38,357 bases of DNA from a virus. The position numbers and the translations under genes were made by a program. The stretch lies in the IMG/VR virus record IMGVR_UViG_3300025311_000002, positions 1-38,357 of that record; one strand, given 5' to 3'. Shown here piece after piece: positions 27,157-33,310 of this stretch; the stretch's first letter is position 1, and each line of letters starts with the position of its first letter. A model generated the notes under the pieces. The model was not told the DNA's origin. It saw only the letters and a program-made list of their open reading frames with translations, and did no database searches.

Positions 27157-27550
27157 CCTCCGGTGCGCTGAATCTGACGCCCTTCTCGATCCCGAATGCC
27201 GTCATCAGGTCGATCAGGTCGCCCATTTCGCGAATGCTCATGCTGCTGGTGGACTTGCCCAGCACCACGAAGCCGCCGTCGATGCCAGGGACCACGTTTT
27301 GCTTGCTGAGCGATGCGGTAAATACATGCTTCCACTCCTCGGCCGAGAGATAGCGGCCGTACCACTCGATCTGCCGGCTGATGTCAGTCAGCATGCTCCA
27401 CAAAAGCGCGTTCTGCTCCAGACTGCGCTTCGACTTCGCGAGCGTAAGTGTCATGACTATGCCTTGCTCGGGCAACTGCATATCCCTCAATCTGGCCAGT
27501 GCCACGTTACGCAGGCCCTCGTCTCGGATATAGACCTTAATCGCCTTCAC
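27131..27550 (-). CDS. ninB: NinB/Orf-family recombination mediator, 139 aa, GTG start.
   Basis: RSLEQNALLWSMLTDISRQIEWYGRYLSAEEWKHVFTASLSKQNVVPGIDGGFVVLGKSTSSMSIREMGDLIDLMTAFG aligns along its length with lambda NinB (RSLDQNRKLWACLGDVSRQVEWHGRWLDAESWKCVFTAAL...). The GTG start overlaps the upstream stop (GTGA). Confidence 0.85.
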   Translation of the reverse strand: MKAIKVYIRDEGLRNVALARLRDMQLPEQGIVMTLTLAKSKRSLEQNALLWSMLTDISRQIEWYGRYLSAEEWKHVFTASLSKQNVVPGIDGGFVVLGKSTSSMSIREMGDLIDLMTAFGIEKGVRFSAPEDGHVWREG

Positions 27551-27939
27551 GCTGCCACCCCTTCTTTCCGGGATGCCACCATTGCGCCTACGGCGTCCTT
27601 GATTTCGTCATCGATGGCCTTGTAATACGCGATCTGCTCCTGCCTGGTGGGCATGGATGCAATCTTGTGCGCGTGGTAGGCCACTCGATAGGATCGACGC
27701 AATTCCGCACCAGTCTGGCAGTAGCGCTCCGTTGGCGCGTGGCAGGCATTGCAGCCCATCAGATGGCTAAAGTACGGGTCTCGCTCATTACGGTACAGTT
27801 CCAGCTTCACCATATCTGCCTCTTCCATAAATTCCGCGTCCTGTTCTCGCTGCCTTCGTTCTTCCATGTCATCGCGCCAGATGTCATATATGGCGACAGC
27901 GAATGCTGCCAAGACAAGGCCGCCCCATAAGAAAATCAC
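27547..27939 (-). CDS. Membrane-anchored hypothetical protein with a Cys/His cluster, 130 aa, GTG start.
   Basis: Strong AAGGAGGA Shine-Dalgarno. The N-terminal transmembrane segment is IFLWGGLVLAAFAVAIY, and a GCNACHAPTERYC motif is present. Confidence 0.5.
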   Translation of the reverse strand: MIFLWGGLVLAAFAVAIYDIWRDDMEERRQREQDAEFMEEADMVKLELYRNERDPYFSHLMGCNACHAPTERYCQTGAELRRSYRVAYHAHKIASMPTRQEQIAYYKAIDDEIKDAVGAMVASRKEGVAA

Positions 27940-27960
27940 AACTATCCTCCTTTCTATCCT

Positions 27961-28506
27961 TCATGCACCGGGCCGATACTGCCGGGGCAGCAAATCCGTG
28001 TCACCTAGAATCACCGTTTTCATTTCCGCCGCCCTATCGGCGATCCCCCGCTTAATTGCCAGCGCCGCGCCGTCAATATACGCCCTATGCTGAAAATTGA
28101 ACGTCTCCAAGGCATTACCGGCAGGCATCCAACGCCCATTGATATATAGCGCCTGATCGCCCAACATGTAGTATTGGTCCGTGTGCTTATTGGCCCATGC
28201 GGCCAATAGGTCCGCCAGCTCGGTGATGGATGACGACGAGCGAGTCATGAATATCTTGCCGACTGCATCGCCGTCAAGGCGGTAAATATCATCGTCGCCC
28301 GCCTGATCGGCCAGCATGTATATAACTTCGTGAGCATTACGCGTCGGGCAAGTGAACCGATAGGGCACCAGCTCGCACAACCAAAAATGAGTGTGTCCTA
28401 GGTCCTTCATATCGGCCATGGCCGCCTGATAGGCCTCGTCTTGGGTATCGTGGAATTGGTGCAGCGCGTAATCGCCATCGTCAAAATAATAGGTGTACTT
28501 GTTCAT
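27961..28506 (-). CDS. Hypothetical protein, 181 aa.
   Basis: Clean ORF in the accessory region. I recognise no family. Confidence 0.5.
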   Translation of the reverse strand: MNKYTYYFDDGDYALHQFHDTQDEAYQAAMADMKDLGHTHFWLCELVPYRFTCPTRNAHEVIYMLADQAGDDDIYRLDGDAVGKIFMTRSSSSITELADLLAAWANKHTDQYYMLGDQALYINGRWMPAGNALETFNFQHRAYIDGAALAIKRGIADRAAEMKTVILGDTDLLPRQYRPGA

Positions 28507-28520
28507 TGGTCCGTGTCCTG

Positions 28521-28748
28521 TTAGTTGCTAATGCTTGCGCCAGCTAGTGAGTAATCCAGGCCGCAAGTGACGGCCTCCATAACCGACACCACAGCATCAT
28601 TAAGCGCAGTGCCCCGCGCCAATTCCGCATTAATCAATTCCCGGTCGTCATAGGTCCAGCGGGCGTGCTGGACAAAGGCCGCGATCTTGTCGCGGGGCAC
28701 TGGCCGCCCGCTGGCAAGATCGGCCGCTGTTTTATGGTCGAAGCTCAT
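28521..28748 (-). CDS. Hypothetical protein, 75 aa from the ATG at 28748.
   Basis: The ATG is preceded by a GGGAGA Shine-Dalgarno. The track's upstream start is a TTG. Confidence 0.45.
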   Translation of the reverse strand: MSFDHKTAADLASGRPVPRDKIAAFVQHARWTYDDRELINAELARGTALNDAVVSVMEAVTCGLDYSLAGASISN

Positions 28749-28798
28749 TTGGCCGTCTCCCTGCCTCCGCCCCCGCCCCCTTCTTAAATGCTTCCAGA

Positions 28799-28978
28799 TC
28801 AAATGCCATGGTCAGTCGCCACCGTTATCCGTTCAATGAACATCGCGCCATTACCCAGCGGCCCATCAGGCAGCACATGAAGCTCGCCGCCGATGGCCAC
28901 GATCTGATAGGGCCGCTGCCGCGCTTCTGCATACTTCTCAGCTGTTGCCACGGCAATTGCAGCGTCAGCGCAGATCAC
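28799..28978 (-). CDS. Hypothetical micro-protein, 59 aa, GTG start. It is below the track's size cut-off.
   Basis: My translation is (M)ICADAAIAVATAEKYAEARQRPYQIVAIGGELHVLPDGPLGNGAMFIERITVATDHGI. The GTG overlaps the upstream stop (GTGA), and the ORF fills an otherwise empty 170-bp gap. Confidence 0.4.
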   Translation of the reverse strand: MICADAAIAVATAEKYAEARQRPYQIVAIGGELHVLPDGPLGNGAMFIERITVATDHGI

Positions 28979-29331
28979 AGTTCGATCTCGATGCTGATGG
29001 TTTTGATGTATCCAGTTTTTTCACTTCCGAAGGTTGATGCCTCCTCAGCATTAGCGAAAAAACGGCATCCGAGATCAAAGCCATATTCTTCATGGCGATA
29101 AACATTGAACCAGCGCTTGATCTTCTTCGGCGCCATTTCCAGCGAATGATTCCCGCTGACGCCATCTTCGCCACATAGGATGATGACACCAGATTCACTG
29201 ACGACAACGATCCTTGTGTGTTCGCGTGCTTCCGGCGCATGCGCGACAAACGTGACATCGATAAATCCATTGTTATCGCTTACAAGCCGGATCGGCTCGC
29301 CGCGCTTTGCTGCCTCAAGATCGAATTTCAT
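28975..29331 (-). CDS. Hypothetical protein, 118 aa from the ATG at 29331.
   Basis: MKFDLEAAKRGEPIRL... Its ATG overlaps the stop of the pentapeptide gene (ATGA). The region is visibly lower in GC. Confidence 0.5.
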   Translation of the reverse strand: MKFDLEAAKRGEPIRLVSDNNGFIDVTFVAHAPEAREHTRIVVVSESGVIILCGEDGVSGNHSLEMAPKKIKRWFNVYRHEEYGFDLGCRFFANAEEASTFGSEKTGYIKTISIEIEL

Positions 29332-30083
29332 TTCTTGCTCCAAAGCTCGACATGTTTGTCAGCCAAGGCAATGGCTGCCAAATATTCTTGGGCGTGGATG
29401 TTGTCTCCATGTTCTCGCGTGAGATTTTCGATAAACTTCTCGCGAGTTCCGAAAAAGTAACCAGCCCTGAACCATTCGCCTTTGTCCGTCAAAAACACCA
29501 TCAGTTGGTCTGAGCACGAGCCTATAGGCCCAATTGCGAAAACTGGCCGATCGCCGACAAGTTTCCCGTATTCTTCGCCCAAGTTCGCGCCGCGCAAGTC
29601 CGCGCCGCGCAAGTTCGCGCCGTACAAGTCCGCGCCGCGCAAGTTCGCGCCGTACAAGTCCGCGCCGTACAAGTCCGCGCCGCGCAAGTTCGCGCCGCGC
29701 AAGTCCGCGCCGCGCAAGTCCGCGCCGCGCAAGTCCGCGCCGTACAAGTTCGCGCCGTACAAGTCCGCGCCGTACAAGTCCGCGCCGCGCAAGTCCGCGC
29801 CGCGCAAGTCCGCGCCGTACAAGTCCGCGCCGCGCAAGTCCGCGCCGCGCAAGTTCGCGCCGCGCAAGTTCGCGCCGTACAAGTTCGCGCCGCGCAAGTC
29901 CGCGCCGTACAAGTCCGCGCCGCGCAAGTTCGCGCCGCGCAAGTCCGCGCCGCGCAAGTTCGCGCCGTACAATTTCGCCGAGCATTTCATTGCCGCTTGC
30001 AGGCTTTTCAGCAATGTATTCTGCTCGCATCCATAGACGTACAAGACTTCACCAGACCAGCGTGACTTAATTTTGATTTTCAT
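29328..30083 (-). CDS. Pentapeptide-repeat protein, long copy, 251 aa. It has a 38-aa N-terminal cap, 26 x A[D/N]L[R/Y]G repeats and an approximately 85-aa C-terminal domain.
   Basis: The ATG at 30083 has a GGAGGG Shine-Dalgarno. The protein reads MKIKIKSRWSGEVLYVYGCEQNTLLKSLQAAMKCSAKLYGANLRGADLRGANL...GANLGEEYGKLVGDRPVFAIGPIGSCSDQLMVFLTDKGEWFRAGYFFGTREKFIENLTREHGDNIHAQEYL.... The track's 311-aa version is an upstream read-through artefact. Confidence 0.85.
   Translation of the reverse strand: MKIKIKSRWSGEVLYVYGCEQNTLLKSLQAAMKCSAKLYGANLRGADLRGANLRGADLYGADLRGANLYGANLRGANLRGADLRGADLYGADLRGADLRGADLYGADLYGANLYGADLRGADLRGADLRGANLRGADLYGADLYGANLRGADLYGANLRGADLRGANLGEEYGKLVGDRPVFAIGPIGSCSDQLMVFLTDKGEWFRAGYFFGTREKFIENLTREHGDNIHAQEYLAAIALADKHVELWSKK
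29580..29969. repeat. Tandem array of 26 x 15 bp (forward unit caagtYcgcgccgNN), varying at only two sites.
   Basis: Counted directly in the sequence. Units differ only at C/T (Asp/Asn) and CG/TA (Arg/Tyr). All six frames are open across the array. Confidence 0.95.
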
Positions 30084-30112
30084 TGCCCAACCCTCCATCA
30101 TGGGCCACCAAC

Positions 30113-30316
30113 TTATGATCCATCGCGCAAGTTCGCGCCGCACAAGTCCGCGCCGCGCAAGTCCGCGCCGCACAAGTCCGCGCCGCGCAAGTCCGCGCCG
30201 TACAAGTTCTCCGGGCATTTCATTGCCGCTTGCAGGCTTTTCAGCGATGTATTCTGCTCGCATCCATAGGCGTACAAGACTTCACCAGACCAGTATGACT
30301 TAATTTCGATTTTCAT
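30113..30316 (-). CDS. Pentapeptide-repeat protein, short truncated paralogue, 67 aa.
   Basis: MKIEIKSYWSGEVLYAYGCEQNTSLKSLQAAMKCPENLYGADLRGADLCGADLRGADLCGANLRDGS. The first 100 nt or so are nearly identical to the long copy, offset by 233 bp. It has five 15-bp units (30128-30202) and a GGAG Shine-Dalgarno. Confidence 0.65.
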   Translation of the reverse strand: MKIEIKSYWSGEVLYAYGCEQNTSLKSLQAAMKCPENLYGADLRGADLCGADLRGADLCGANLRDGS

Positions 30317-30352
30317 GTTCTCAACTCCATCTGTGTTTTGCTCGACGAACAG

Positions 30353-30381
30353 AATATAGCGCAGCCTGTTCGGTTAGTCTA
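30353..30381 (-). promoter_or_regulatory. Putative sigma70-type promoter for the pentapeptide cassette: -35 TAGACT, 17-nt spacer, -10 TATATT.
   Basis: Minus-sense sequence is TAGACTaaccgaacaggctgcgcTATATT. This is nearly the same architecture as the putative PR (TAGACGtaattttgttgctgcgcTATTAT), including the shared GCTGCGCTAT. Confidence 0.4.
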
Positions 30382-30404
30382 TGACTCTTTCGCAAAAAGG
30401 AGGG

Positions 30405-30509
30405 CTATTTCAGGAGATACACAATCAGCGCCAGCGACCACACGAACATAGCCACATCGAGGCGCATGGCCAGCGCCCACTTACCGATGGCATGGATTCG
30501 GTCACGCAT
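30405..30509 (-). CDS. Hydrophobic micro-protein, 34 aa.
   Basis: MRDRIHAIGKWALAMRLDVAMFVWSLALIVYLLK. Its ATG overlaps the 3' end of the DnaC-like gene by 8 nt. It corresponds to the internal Met of track ORF 30405..30590. Confidence 0.3.
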   Translation of the reverse strand: MRDRIHAIGKWALAMRLDVAMFVWSLALIVYLLK

Positions 30510-31284
30510 CAGAGCCACCACGGCGGCTTTCACCCTCCAATGGCACCCACTTGCCACCATCGCGCAGTCGGTCGAATATGCGCTCACCAAGGGCCTGCTT
30601 TAGGCCGTCTCGGTCTAGGTTCGTGGTGATGATGGTGGGTAGCTCATCGTTGTAGCGCCGGCATAGCACATCCGCTACAGACGCAATCTCAGCCTCCGTG
30701 CCCAGGGATGCCCCAACGTCATCCAGCACCAGCAGATCGCAGCCTGCGTACCGCTGGAATACCTCCAGTTCAGACGGGCCTCCTCGCCGCCCCCAGGTGC
30801 TGCGGATCGTGGCGATCAGCTCTCGAACCGTCGTGAACATGGCGAACTGGTTGCGAACGGCCGCCTCCCTGGCGATAGCGCAGGCGATCCAGGTTTTCCC
30901 GGTGCCGACAGGACCAGCCAGGATCATGGCGCCGCCCTGACAGTTATCCAGGTACTCCCGGACTCGCTGCCGCTGCCTGGCGCTCAGGCGACGCCAGCGG
31001 GCATTCCGGTACTTGCGAGGAATGCCAGCGATCTCCAGCCTGGTGATGGCCGCTGCCGCATAGCCCTTGCGCTTGTCAACTTGTCCTGCGCGTCGCTCTC
31101 GTCGCTGGCTGCGCTGCTCCTGGCATACAGGGCAGATCGGCAACTGGTCCTGCGCCACGCGGAGGAACGTCTGTTCACCATGGGTTGCGCAATTGACGAT
31201 GACATTCTCGGTTGCCGGCTGCTCACCTGCCACCATGCGCTTTAGGTACTCAACGGGTGTTTGACAGAGATCAGAACTGCCCAT
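30502..31284 (-). CDS. DnaC/IstB-like AAA+ helicase loader with an N-terminal Cys4 zinc motif, 260 aa.
   Basis: Walker A is GPVGTGKTWIACAIA and Walker B is LLVLDDVG. The N-terminal motif is CATHGEQ...CPVCQ. The gene overlaps the end of the initiator gene. Confidence 0.8.
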   Translation of the reverse strand: MGSSDLCQTPVEYLKRMVAGEQPATENVIVNCATHGEQTFLRVAQDQLPICPVCQEQRSQRRERRAGQVDKRKGYAAAAITRLEIAGIPRKYRNARWRRLSARQRQRVREYLDNCQGGAMILAGPVGTGKTWIACAIAREAAVRNQFAMFTTVRELIATIRSTWGRRGGPSELEVFQRYAGCDLLVLDDVGASLGTEAEIASVADVLCRRYNDELPTIITTNLDRDGLKQALGERIFDRLRDGGKWVPLEGESRRGGSDA

Positions 31285-32053
31285 TTGCCCCCACTCCCGC
31301 TGTGTAGTCCATGCCGCTCAGGTCAGCACGATGGCCGTATGGGCTGTTAGGACGTTGCTGGTTGCCAGGGCGACTGCTCTGTTCCCTGCGCACCCAATTG
31401 CGCCATGTGGCGAACCAGTCGGCTTTTCGGCCCTTGGCGCCAGCAGCGGATTGCCAGTAGTCCCTGAAAGTCTCCCAGGTTGTCTGGAGCCTTCCAGGCA
31501 GCATGCCAGCCTCAGTAGCCCATGCTGCCCACTCTTCCGGGATGCTATCCAACGTGAGCCGAGTTCCATTGTTGGCGGTAGTGCGCGCCTGTTGCGCACT
31601 ACTCTTTTCTTCTGATGGTTCTATGATGGTTAATGACGGTTTGGGTGCAACAGCTATTGCACCCTTTACTGCGTCAGATTGCACCCTAGGCGTCGTGGAT
31701 TGCACCCTTTGGGGTGCAACTTTTGCACCCTTCTCTTGATCAATGGGTGCAATTTCTGCACCCTTTAACCAGGCCGGGTTAATGCGATATTCGCGCGGAT
31801 AGCCACGACCATTTGCATCGCGCCCTCCAGTGCCATGCGCCACCAGCATCAGCCAGCCAGCCTCCTCCATCTTGCGGAGTTGGTATTGCACAGTGCGCTC
31901 GGATTGACGGGTCCTTATCGCCAGCCTTTTGATCGACGGATAGATATTCTGGCCTTCATCGTCAGAATGATCAGCCAGGGCCAGCGCCAGCACCATTTCG
32001 CCGCCGCCATTTGGGTATCGGTCAAAAATGGCCGTCATCACCTTAATGCTCAT
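31271..32053 (-). CDS. Replication initiator (lambda O-like role) with an N-terminal winged-HTH, 260 aa from the ATG at 32053.
   Basis: Strong GGGAGG Shine-Dalgarno. MSIKVMTAIFDRYPNGGGEMVLALALADHSDDEGQNIYPSIKRLAIRTRQSERTVQYQLRKMEEAGWL is an HTH_36-like domain. Iterons are embedded in the linker region. The gene lies upstream of the DnaC-like loader. Confidence 0.7.
   Translation of the reverse strand: MSIKVMTAIFDRYPNGGGEMVLALALADHSDDEGQNIYPSIKRLAIRTRQSERTVQYQLRKMEEAGWLMLVAHGTGGRDANGRGYPREYRINPAWLKGAEIAPIDQEKGAKVAPQRVQSTTPRVQSDAVKGAIAVAPKPSLTIIEPSEEKSSAQQARTTANNGTRLTLDSIPEEWAAWATEAGMLPGRLQTTWETFRDYWQSAAGAKGRKADWFATWRNWVRREQSSRPGNQQRPNSPYGHRADLSGMDYTAGVGANGQF
31643..31764. promoter_or_regulatory. 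Candidate origin of replication: eight copies of the 8-mer TTGCACCC / GGGTGCAA inside the initiator gene.
   Basis: GGGTGCAA occurs at 31643, 31712 and 31745. TTGCACCC occurs at 31657, 31679, 31700 and 31723, and cTGCACCC at 31756. Three of these form inverted pairs with 3-6 bp spacers. An AT-richer stretch with GATGGTT repeats (31601-31642) flanks the cluster. Confidence 0.6.
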
Positions 32054-32424: not shown

Positions 32425-32629
32425 CCCTGGACGACCAGGGGAACTAAGTAACCAGGCCGGCTTGAGTCCGACGCATAGCGCATGAGGGCGCTCCCTGCGG
32501 GGCGGAGTAGCCAAGCCGATCTGGTGAACTAGACTTCACAGGCCAGCGCCTTGTCAGTGCGGGTTATTGCATGCGGGTGCCTGATTCGTGCGCACCAAGG
32601 CGCTGGACTTGTGAGGTTTGATATCTCAC
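32425..32629 (+). ncRNA. Structured 5' leader of the leftward operon, with several stable stems and no convincing ORF.
   Basis: Four stem sets are visible. The first is CCCTGG-acga-CCAGGG (32425-32440). The second is CGCTCC-ctgc-GGGGCG (32489-32504). The third is an 8-bp long-range stem, CCAGCGCC (32543-32550) with GGCGCTGG (32599-32606), enclosing GGTGC...GCACC (32576-32596). The fourth is GTGAG-gtttgatat-CTCAC (32611-32629). Confidence 0.35.
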
Positions 32630-32655
32630 ACAAACCAACCTTCAAGGAATACGGC

Positions 32656-33033
32656 ATGAACATTGACGATTTGACCTATGGCGACTTGAAGAAGATCGCT
32701 GCTTTGTTTTCTGGAAATGGCGAGGCCAAGAATGCGGCCATCGATGATCATCTGATCGGAAAGCCGGTAATTATTCGCACCTACAGCGCTGGCGTTCATT
32801 TTGGGATTCTTGATGCGCGCAATGGCGCGGAAGTGCGACTTCGGGATACGCGCCGCATTTGGTATTGGGAAAAGGCATTTACTCTGTCCCAGGTTTCCCA
32901 GGATGGCGTCGGCGGCAATACCAAAATGCCAGCAGCGATCCCGGAAATCATTTTGACAGAGTGCGTAGAAATCCTTCCTTGCAGTGAGAAGGCGGCGGAA
33001 TGCCTGCGCTCATACAACGTGCATGAGGTCTAA
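32656..33033 (+). CDS. Conserved phage protein of unknown function, 125 aa from the ATG at 32656.
   Basis: AAGGAA Shine-Dalgarno. GKPVIIRTYSAGVHFGILDARNGAEVRLRDTRRIWYWEKAFTLSQVSQDGV...ILTECVEILPCSEKA resembles a widespread phage family I cannot name reliably. Confidence 0.6.
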   Translation: MNIDDLTYGDLKKIAALFSGNGEAKNAAIDDHLIGKPVIIRTYSAGVHFGILDARNGAEVRLRDTRRIWYWEKAFTLSQVSQDGVGGNTKMPAAIPEIILTECVEILPCSEKAAECLRSYNVHEV

Positions 33034-33034
33034 T

Positions 33035-33310
33035 ATGCGTCATTGGCATAAACCTGACGGCTCCGGCTCCGGCTACGGCGACGGCTCCGGCTACGGCTCC
33101 GGCTCCGGCGACGGCTCCGGCTCCGGCTACGGCTCCGGCTACGGCTCCGGCTACGGCTCCGGCGACGGCGACGGCTCCGGCGACGGCTCCGGCTACGGCG
33201 ACGGCGACGGCTCCGGCGACGGCTCCGGCGACGGCTCCGGCGACGGCTCCGGCTACGGCGACGGCGACGGCTCCGGCGACGGCTCCGGCGACGGCTCCGG
33301 CGACGGTTAA
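33035..33310 (+). CDS. (Gly-X)41 low-complexity acidic protein, X = Ser/Tyr/Asp only, 91 aa.
   Basis: The ATG lies 1 nt after the upstream TAA, with a GAGG Shine-Dalgarno. The protein is MRHWHKPD followed by GS/GY/GD dipeptides. A double stop (taataa) ends the gene. Confidence 0.6.
   Translation: MRHWHKPDGSGSGYGDGSGYGSGSGDGSGSGYGSGYGSGYGSGDGDGSGDGSGYGDGDGSGDGSGDGSGDGSGYGDGDGSGDGSGDGSGDG
33059..33307. repeat. Hexamer array built only from GGCTCC, GGCTAC and GGCGAC. It includes a perfect 60-bp tandem duplication (33181-33240 = 33241-33300).
   Basis: Read directly. The two 60-nt sequence lines are identical, and every Gly codon is GGC, except that the final codon before the stop (33305-33307) is GGT. 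Confidence 0.95.

Follow-up and report, generated by a model that had tools for sequence, protein, structure and literature searches.

A uniform 15-bp pentapeptide-repeat array in the early operon of a P22-like phage: a member of a cap-array-C-domain family with a plausible counter-defence role

The product of gene 24_60 of Vibrio phage 24 is a pentapeptide-repeat protein, and its repeat region could be read only with the help of PCR and Sanger sequencing; deletion of the gene makes the phage highly sensitive to the RexAB-like Sucellos system, and the changes Y112R and N115D were carried by six of the six evolved escapers (bioRxiv 10.1101/2024.07.02.601686, preprint). In Salmonella phages L and ST64T, which are more than 99.9% identical, one of the only two differing sites is a 15-bp unit in the gene orf232 (PMC8022706). 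For the protein MfpA, the argument for DNA mimicry was built on a size, a shape and an electrostatic surface like those of B-DNA (PMC8145042). Here we analyze a gene related in different degrees to these systems, found in the 38,357-nucleotide stretch that makes up positions 1 to 38,357 of IMG/VR virus record IMGVR_UViG_3300025311_000002 (hereafter the window). The gene encodes a 251-amino acid (aa) pentapeptide-repeat protein with an array of nearly uniform 15-bp units, and it was first noticed in a preliminary description made from the sequence, which proposed a DNA-mimicking, counter-defence module. The best overall explanation of our data, to which we give a probability of about one half, is that its product is an early accessory rod that acts as a protein-binding decoy or inhibitor of a host factor and varies through its repeats.

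The gene and its parts, as delimited by codon-by-codon reading, by the AlphaFold2 (AF2) model and by conservation in the family, are the following:

29328..30083 (30083->29328), minus strand: gene of the long pentapeptide-repeat protein, 251 aa, with cap, array and C-terminal domain
29979..30083, minus strand: N-terminal cap, aa 1-35 (MKIKIKSRWSGEVLYVYGCEQNTLLKSLQAAMKCS), folded in the AF2 model as a beta-hairpin followed by a helix
29964-29978, minus strand: degenerate AKLYG unit preceding the array (codon-by-codon reading)
29589..29963, minus strand: 25 exact 15-bp units, aa 41-165, GCG[G/A]ACTTG[CG/TA]CGGC = A[D/N]L[R/Y]G
29574-29588, minus strand: partial or degenerate ANLGE unit after the array (codon-by-codon reading)
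29328..29573, minus strand: C-terminal alpha/beta domain of about 80 aa, aa 171-251 plus stop codon (AF2 model and family conservation)

The 251-aa gene with its 15-bp array had been placed correctly in the preliminary description, where the strand (minus) was unstated, and both Tandem Repeats Finder (TRF), which gave 26.1 copies with 0% indels at 29576-29967, and the reading of the codons agree on it; the number of uninterrupted units, however, is not 26 but 25 exact ones plus two degenerate ones. In all 25 exact units the two switch sites are the sole variable bases, as the same description had it, and they combine into nine DR, seven NR, seven DY and two NY units, so that all four combinations are present, with the D/N and R/Y states statistically independent of each other (Fisher p = 0.40). 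When the units were sorted by face (k mod 4) no clear segregation of charge was detected. The array is stop-free in all six frames, which accounts for the overlapping spurious open reading frames (ORFs) seen there, and the longest exact repeat within it is 65 bp. The ATG of the gene is preceded, 7 nt upstream, by a GGAGGG sequence resembling a ribosome-binding site.

That the product is a pentapeptide-repeat beta-helix protein, as had been proposed, was borne out by the match to the Pfam family PF00805 (E 4.5e-75, 247 bits against a cut-off of 20.2), by the number of repeats, 25 exact and two degenerate units where eight contiguous A(D/N)LXX pentapeptides with a score over the Pfam gathering threshold suffice, and by an AF2 model of the whole protein with a mean predicted local distance difference test (pLDDT) of 90.1, which shows a hairpin-helix cap (E2-6, E13-18, H24-33), a perfectly periodic solenoid with one bridge per 5 residues along aa 42-166, and the C-terminal domain. 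In this model the repeats form a quadrilateral beta-helix rod, right-handed and of about 6.5-7 coils, with four units per coil. The cap is covered by phrog_31265 and phrog_31567, and its consensus xIxIKxRxTGxVLF is common to the family members described below. A comparison with solved structures, suggested in the preliminary description, was carried out with Foldseek and gave pentapeptide-repeat matches at E 7e-13 and weaker; the fold is shared with MfpA, QnrB1 and AlbG (E 1e-8 to 1e-6), and the closest matches in the PDB are designed consensus solenoids (5di5, root-mean-square deviation of 0.8 Å over 141 columns). The best of them, the "beta1" design (PDB 4yc5, 5di5 and related), is 55% identical to the phage protein and is, like it, an idealised solenoid made from very few unit types, but it is synthetic and carries engineered caps, whereas in the phage protein the cap is natural and a conserved domain makes up the C-terminus.

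The relatives of the protein were sought through its cap and C-terminal domain (hereafter the C-domain), a search also suggested from the outset. A word-index search with the C-domain returned 38 proteins, which are 109-153 aa long and have 3-7 units between the cap and the C-domain, and a genome-contig profile scan from a 6-sequence alignment gave 4 loci. An exhaustive profile search of 1.84 billion representatives, clustered at 50% identity, yielded 807 clusters when the limit was E <= 1e-10 and 2,521 when it was E <= 1e-3, so that the family comprises at least 2,521 clusters; in its proteins, of 83-447 aa, the C-domain is almost always C-terminal. Among 54 complete IMG/VR genes the median number of units was 18.5 and the maximum 39, and family members range overall from about 3 to 39 units. 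Similar arrays are present in isolates, with 38 units in a Comamonas prophage, 23 in an Azoarcus prophage and about 27 near-identical 15-mers, written with other codons, in the cultured Pseudomonas phage Amjad_SA (WAX22767.1). A long array, uniform at the DNA level, is thus the norm of the family and not an oddity of the window. The idea that such uniformity was unusual and undescribed did not stand: near-identical 15-bp arrays are the rule both in this family and among the 24_60/orf232 proteins, for which the one-unit difference between phages L and ST64T was already published (PMC8022706).

From its motifs, the window protein is assigned to this cap-array-C-domain family, all of them being kept except Cys209, replaced by Tyr. 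The same architecture is found in PHROG 20532/7964, in WAX22767.1 of Amjad_SA and in gp3 of EBPR siphovirus 1, and these relatives are all annotated as hypothetical or unknown; the window copy differs from them in having the fewest unit types (four) for its length and in the Tyr that replaces the conserved Cys.

Conservation in these proteins lies in the C-domain. Modelled alone (AF2, pLDDT 92.8), it consists of four strands and two helices, and its motifs are RP, GPIGS, AG[C]FF, HGxNxH, EY, H and W, with the residues R, P, GPIGS, C, F, H, H, E, Y, H and W each conserved in 92-100% of the family C-domains. A fold search of the PDB with the domain gave no match (best E 0.57), no Pfam family or NCBIfam match was found for it, and in a PDB sequence-profile search with the protein the match came via the repeats and none through the C-domain. 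It does match phrog_20532 (E 6e-9) and phrog_7964, and in BFVD the C-termini of phage beta-solenoid proteins (query TM-score, TMq, 0.6-0.77) whose N-terminal parts are annotated as pentapeptide, hexapeptide, polymer-forming cytoskeletal (bactofilin-like) or other beta-solenoids; standalone proteins of 82-104 aa match it as well. Residue 209 (29457-29459, minus strand) is Tyr in the window, which reads AGYFF in place of AGCFF, and Cys in 97% of 185 family C-domains. Among the polar residues of the domain, this Cys, three His and a Glu show the highest conservation, and they could make up a metal or active site.

Concerning 24_60, the gene was located as SBVc24_0060, and a homolog was also found in phage CP-T1. 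The arrays of both are made of near-identical 15-mers, GCA[G/A]ACCTA[CG/TA]CGGC = A[D/N]L[R/Y]G, which is the same peptide code as that of the window array written with different codons. Further homologs of 24_60 are orf232 of Salmonella phages ST64T, L, epsilon34, g341c and NM-3, and genes in Edwardsiella phages; these orf232-type homologs have 12-24 units with a code of D/N/Y by R/C by G/D, which reads A[D/N/Y]L[R/C][G/D] in the Salmonella phages. As a word-index search for homologs of the 24_60 C-terminal domain gave no candidates, phage records and IMG/VR loci were used instead. Like the window gene, 24_60 and orf232 encode small pentapeptide-repeat proteins of early phage operons, with near-identical 15-bp units that switch only at exposed residues and differ in number between close relatives, followed by a C-terminal domain of about 80 aa with a G-x-x-V-R-A-G-C...T-x-E-E-[FW] motif. 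Profile alignment (hhalign) of the window C-domain with that of 24_60/orf232 gave probabilities of 24-65% over 19-59 columns around the RAGC motif. Residues 110, 112 and 115 of 24_60 would sit at positions i-1, i+1 and i-1 of the repeat, on a register counted from residue 24, the corrected sequence being absent from the GenBank record; that record holds 140 aa and 8 units, shorter than the residue numbering of the preprint implies. The CP-T1 homolog (L015:2480-2977; JQ177061.1 12900-13397), with 165 aa and 13 units, is not annotated as a gene in GenBank.

The differences are also clear. The window protein begins with the hairpin cap MKIKIKSRWSGEVLY, whereas 24_60 and orf232 begin with MNxxDLxKILEEHKxW, and in a tblastn comparison with CP-T1 the alignment covered query residues 20-206 and left most of the N-terminal cap uncovered. 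The GPIGS hairpin of the window C-domain is absent from orf232. The window gene lies in the early-right (nin) region, while orf232 follows ral in the early-left operon, in phage L directly after this anti-restriction gene. Finally, 24_60 is a demonstrated anti-defence factor (preprint), whereas for the family of the window protein such a role is drawn by analogy.

The way in which the units vary was studied by counting variant codons, seen in at least 2 units of an array, in one array per distinct consensus 15-mer (n=43). In the complete IMG/VR genes, an array nearly always has as many distinct units at the nucleotide level as at the peptide level. At the exposed codons (i-1, i+1 and i+2) there were 150 non-synonymous and 7 synonymous variants, compared with 2 and 8 at the buried Ala and Leu codons, which makes 152 and 15 over all codons; 35 of the 43 arrays had no synonymous variant at all. 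At the nucleotide level the synonymous share of the variant states was 13% against an expected 28% (binomial p = 7e-7). This pattern fits a backbone homogenised by repeat turnover with retained amino-acid changes on the surface. The earlier proposal of a very young or actively homogenised array is thus incomplete, as the family combines a homogenised backbone with an excess of amino-acid-changing variants at the exposed positions. A diversity-generating retroelement was considered and rejected as the source of the switches: its mutagenesis acts on template adenines, and the G/A and CG/TA switch sites do not fit this. No reverse transcriptase was found among the scanned ORFs or the Pfam tags of related contigs; a template repeat was not looked for.

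Whether the number and uniformity of the units could be an artefact of assembly, which had been named as a way to refute the whole idea, was judged from other assemblies. The exact 251-aa product is found on 5 contigs. One of them is a 38,371-bp scaffold labelled ANAN16-1, a label that we take to stand for the metagenomes from the Rifle aquifer published by Anantharaman et al. 2016; over 6,756 bp its sequence and that of the window are 100% identical. In a second Rifle aquifer sample the array again has 25 units, with one Asn->Lys change. Contig L003 of sample ERZ4903055 opens (L003:1-44) with poly-G junk followed by the array with an AAC->AAA (Asn->Lys) unit, and the same unit occurs in the full-length allele of contig L006, so the variant is probably real and not a read-end error. 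MEGAHIT contigs from other samples have their first base within the array, and their 10 and 14 units agree at 100% with those that close the window array. Contigs of the near-identical phage, with flanks 99.85-100% identical, carry 25, 10, 9 or 2 units, and the 2-unit allele (contig L002) is a deletion that joins exactly the 48-bp repeats at both ends of the array; these length differences between assemblies may be biological.

An artefact is suggested by the length of the array, which at 390 bp exceeds that of short reads, by the MEGAHIT contigs with 2, 9 and 10 units, and by the many contigs that break at such arrays: among IMG/VR viral contigs, 26 of 80 in the C-domain family and 22 of 80 in the orf232 family end inside or beside the array. 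The isolate scaffold of Variovorax sp. N23 (L187) has an N-gap inside its array. Such arrays systematically cause short-read assemblies to break or collapse, so that the number of units in a database entry is not to be trusted. Nevertheless, the same 25-unit order is reproduced in contigs from at least 2 samples and, over the last 10 and 14 units, in partial contigs from other samples, and equally long and uniform arrays exist in cultured phages and isolate genomes, the array of phage 24 having been confirmed through PCR and Sanger sequencing. Moreover, since the longest internal exact repeat is 65 bp, k-mers or reads above 65 nt, such as those of 100-150 nt, are sufficient to resolve the array. 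We therefore regard an artefact as extremely improbable.

The genomic setting supports an early accessory gene. The gene is carried by a temperate P22-like phage, as indicated by the matching contig, which has an Sf6-type terminase and a P22 portal, and by the presence of RecT-like and YqaJ genes and of a lysis gene of the CHAP type; the phage probably comes from Rifle aquifer groundwater and infects a betaproteobacterium. Megablast of positions 27500-32000 against 50,697 phage records gave zero matches; the phage has no close sequenced isolate. The neighbouring features are these:

32095-31271, minus strand: O-like initiator gene
31284-30502, minus strand: DnaC-like loader gene
30317..30501, minus strand: AT-richer intergenic gap of 185 bp, from the DnaC-like gene to the short paralog
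30381-30353, minus strand: promoter-like site in the gap, TAGACT-17-TATATT, 9/12 matches
30113..30316, minus strand: short paralog, 67 aa, with the same cap and 5 units, without C-terminal domain (PF00805 E 1.7e-10)
29891..30316, no strand assigned: tandem duplication of 233 bp, 1.8 copies, 93% matches (TRF)
28975..29331, minus strand: downstream ORF of 118 aa with no function assigned (ATGA overlap with the long gene; weak match to phrog_29630 only)
27550-27131, minus strand: ninB

The order on the minus strand is therefore O-like gene, DnaC-like gene, gap, short paralog, long gene, 118-aa ORF, more small ORFs and ninB, which agrees with the placement between replication and nin genes given before, and the long gene lies inside the early-right operon and reads in the same direction. 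The coupling to the downstream gene that had been noticed also holds, the 118-aa ORF being predicted from the ATGA overlap to be translationally coupled to the long gene. By contrast, the promoter of its own that the cassette had been credited with is not supported: three promoter-like sites were found against 2.8 expected from shuffles, so that the site at 30381-30353, at chance level, is no evidence of a promoter. As for the low-GC patch, the flanks are indeed at 45-52%, but the array itself is at 72%, in a window of about 58%. Relatives of the long gene are found in early operons that also hold erf, YqaJ, repressor and nin genes as neighbours, and their position varies, as is usual for accessory genes. 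No conserved partner gene was detected, since the genes downstream of the relatives differ and the 118-aa ORF is not kept beside the repeat gene, and PADLOC gave no defence-system match for the repeat proteins or four neighbouring proteins.

The cassette range proposed earlier, 29328-30381, also holds the truncated paralog at 30113-30316 and the 233-bp duplication, neither of which had been mentioned. The short paralog arose through this tandem duplication, which copied the 5' part of the long gene. The paralog is also present in contigs L002, L004 and L006, and with 57 aa in L007. Its units alternate between ADLRG and ADLCG, with CGC (Arg) and TGC (Cys), and TGC is a one-step intermediate between the CGC (Arg) and TAC (Tyr) codons of the long array. 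A second coding repeat, at 33056-33306 on the plus strand, lies inside the ORF 32984..33310, just downstream of a DUF6948 gene (32551-33033); it consists of about 42 six-base units GGC[TCC/GAC/TAC] (TRF period 12, 21.4 copies) and encodes (Gly-[Ser/Asp/Tyr])n at the end of this small early-left ORF, with the same logic as the pentapeptide array.

Starting from the modelled fold, the repeat structure, the position in an early operon, the family-wide length variation and the non-synonymous excess at exposed positions, we infer a counter-defence function and its target by analogy with 24_60. In the explanation that we favour, the buried Ala and Leu, fixed in every unit, would hold the rod while the exposed D/N (i-1) and R/Y (i+1) would form a patterned surface. 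Slippage and unequal or intragenic recombination of the 15-bp units would change the number of units and the order of the switches, always in frame and, as expected for such repeats, much faster than point mutation. The rod would bind a host factor as a decoy or inhibitor, most plausibly a sensor or an effector that belongs to a defence system, whether of the abortive-infection type or another, and the instability of the repeats would supply the variation needed to track this target. The counter-defence locus of the preliminary description is in this sense plausible, given the early accessory region and the likeness to 24_60, although it is an analogy that carries it.

The more specific proposal of a DNA mimic of the Qnr/MfpA/AlbG type, in which the rod would imitate B-DNA and bind gyrase, RecBCD or a restriction enzyme, fared worse, and we consider it very unlikely. 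These proteins do share with the window protein the quadrilateral beta-helix, on which the Foldseek matches to them rest, and the A(D/N)LXX repeat; there are weak, sub-threshold NCBIfam matches to the Qnr and MfpA families, and an early-operon position would suit an anti-restriction or anti-RecBCD role, orf232 being adjacent to ral in phage L. However, their scores are far below the cut-offs (53.4 bits against 240 for Qnr, 61.7 against 360 for MfpA, with all Qnr subfamilies below), and the window protein differs from them in being a phage early gene product with nucleotide-uniform repeats that is neutral to basic and not acidic. As a sequence proxy of its surface, Asp and Arg number 16 each in the array, and over the whole protein 31 residues are acidic and 33 basic, with an isoelectric point (pI) of 8.3, which is not DNA-like; Arg makes up half of the exposed switch states, and the D/N and R/Y swaps change the charge and would break a constant DNA-like surface. 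In addition, the uninterrupted array leaves no place for Qnr-type loops, and an alpha/beta C-terminal domain is predicted in place of the dimerisation helix.

A different possibility is that the function resides in the C-domain, as an enzyme, a metal-binding or an oligomerisation module, and that the rod is a spacer or scaffold drifting through slippage. The conservation of the key residues of this domain (92-100%), its occurrence as a standalone protein or fused to hexapeptide, bactofilin-like and other solenoids, and a rod length that seems freely tolerated between about 3 and 39 units are in its favour, but neutral drift predicts at least as many synonymous as non-synonymous variants and the exposed codons show 7 and 150, respectively, and the escape changes of phage 24 in the preprint fit surface positions of the rod and not the C-domain. 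On balance we think this unlikely as a full account, and it is compatible with the rod being functional, since the rod could confer specificity on a domain that acts as the effector. The gene could also be thought of as a moron, expressed from the prophage to protect the lysogen through superinfection exclusion or defence and not to aid lytic growth. The 185-bp AT-richer gap with its promoter-like site upstream, the lower-GC flanks, which suggest acquired DNA, and the different placement of the gene in different phages would be expected from this. Against it, promoter-like sites are no more frequent than chance predicts, the gene has the orientation of the early-right operon that surrounds it, PADLOC gave zero matches, and the only characterised analogue acts for the phage against a host system, so that a moron appears as improbable to us as a DNA mimic.

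Several points weigh against the favoured explanation of an early, protein-binding rod with repeat-driven variation. The function of the window protein, like that of the whole C-domain family, is argued by analogy, and neither PADLOC nor Pfam yields a functional hint. The homology between its C-domain and that of 24_60/orf232 is suggestive only, from sequence profiles, and the two groups have different N-terminal caps. The numbers behind the non-synonymous excess are of variant states and not of independent mutation events, and arrays with different consensus units may still share ancestry. The contigs with 2, 9 and 10 units could come from low-k collapse instead of population variants, and the window copy, to judge from its loss of the 97%-conserved Cys of the C-domain, could be functionally impaired.

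Taken alone, the long gene is one more uncharacterised phage pentapeptide-repeat protein. It joins a known but uncharacterised kind, and it is the family-level signature and a C-domain without a match among the solved structures of the PDB that are worth pursuing, the latter being flagged here for structural and functional work. The one phage pentapeptide-repeat protein for which an anti-defence role has been demonstrated follows the same repeat logic. As a more tentative extension, which we hold as possible but not as the likelier outcome, this family, and probably that of 24_60/orf232, might be a general recombination-driven system of hypervariable surfaces, with the C-domain as the common effector or assembly module of a broad class of solenoid counter-defence proteins. 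Concerted evolution of the 15-bp units would keep the solenoid backbone homogeneous, the three exposed positions would make a small combinatorial code, here D/N by R/Y, and slippage and intragenic recombination would reshuffle, expand and contract it. The model is testable and would provide fast variation of a binding surface in phages without a dedicated diversity-generating enzyme; if this extension were true, phages could retune that surface against defence proteins within a few generations.

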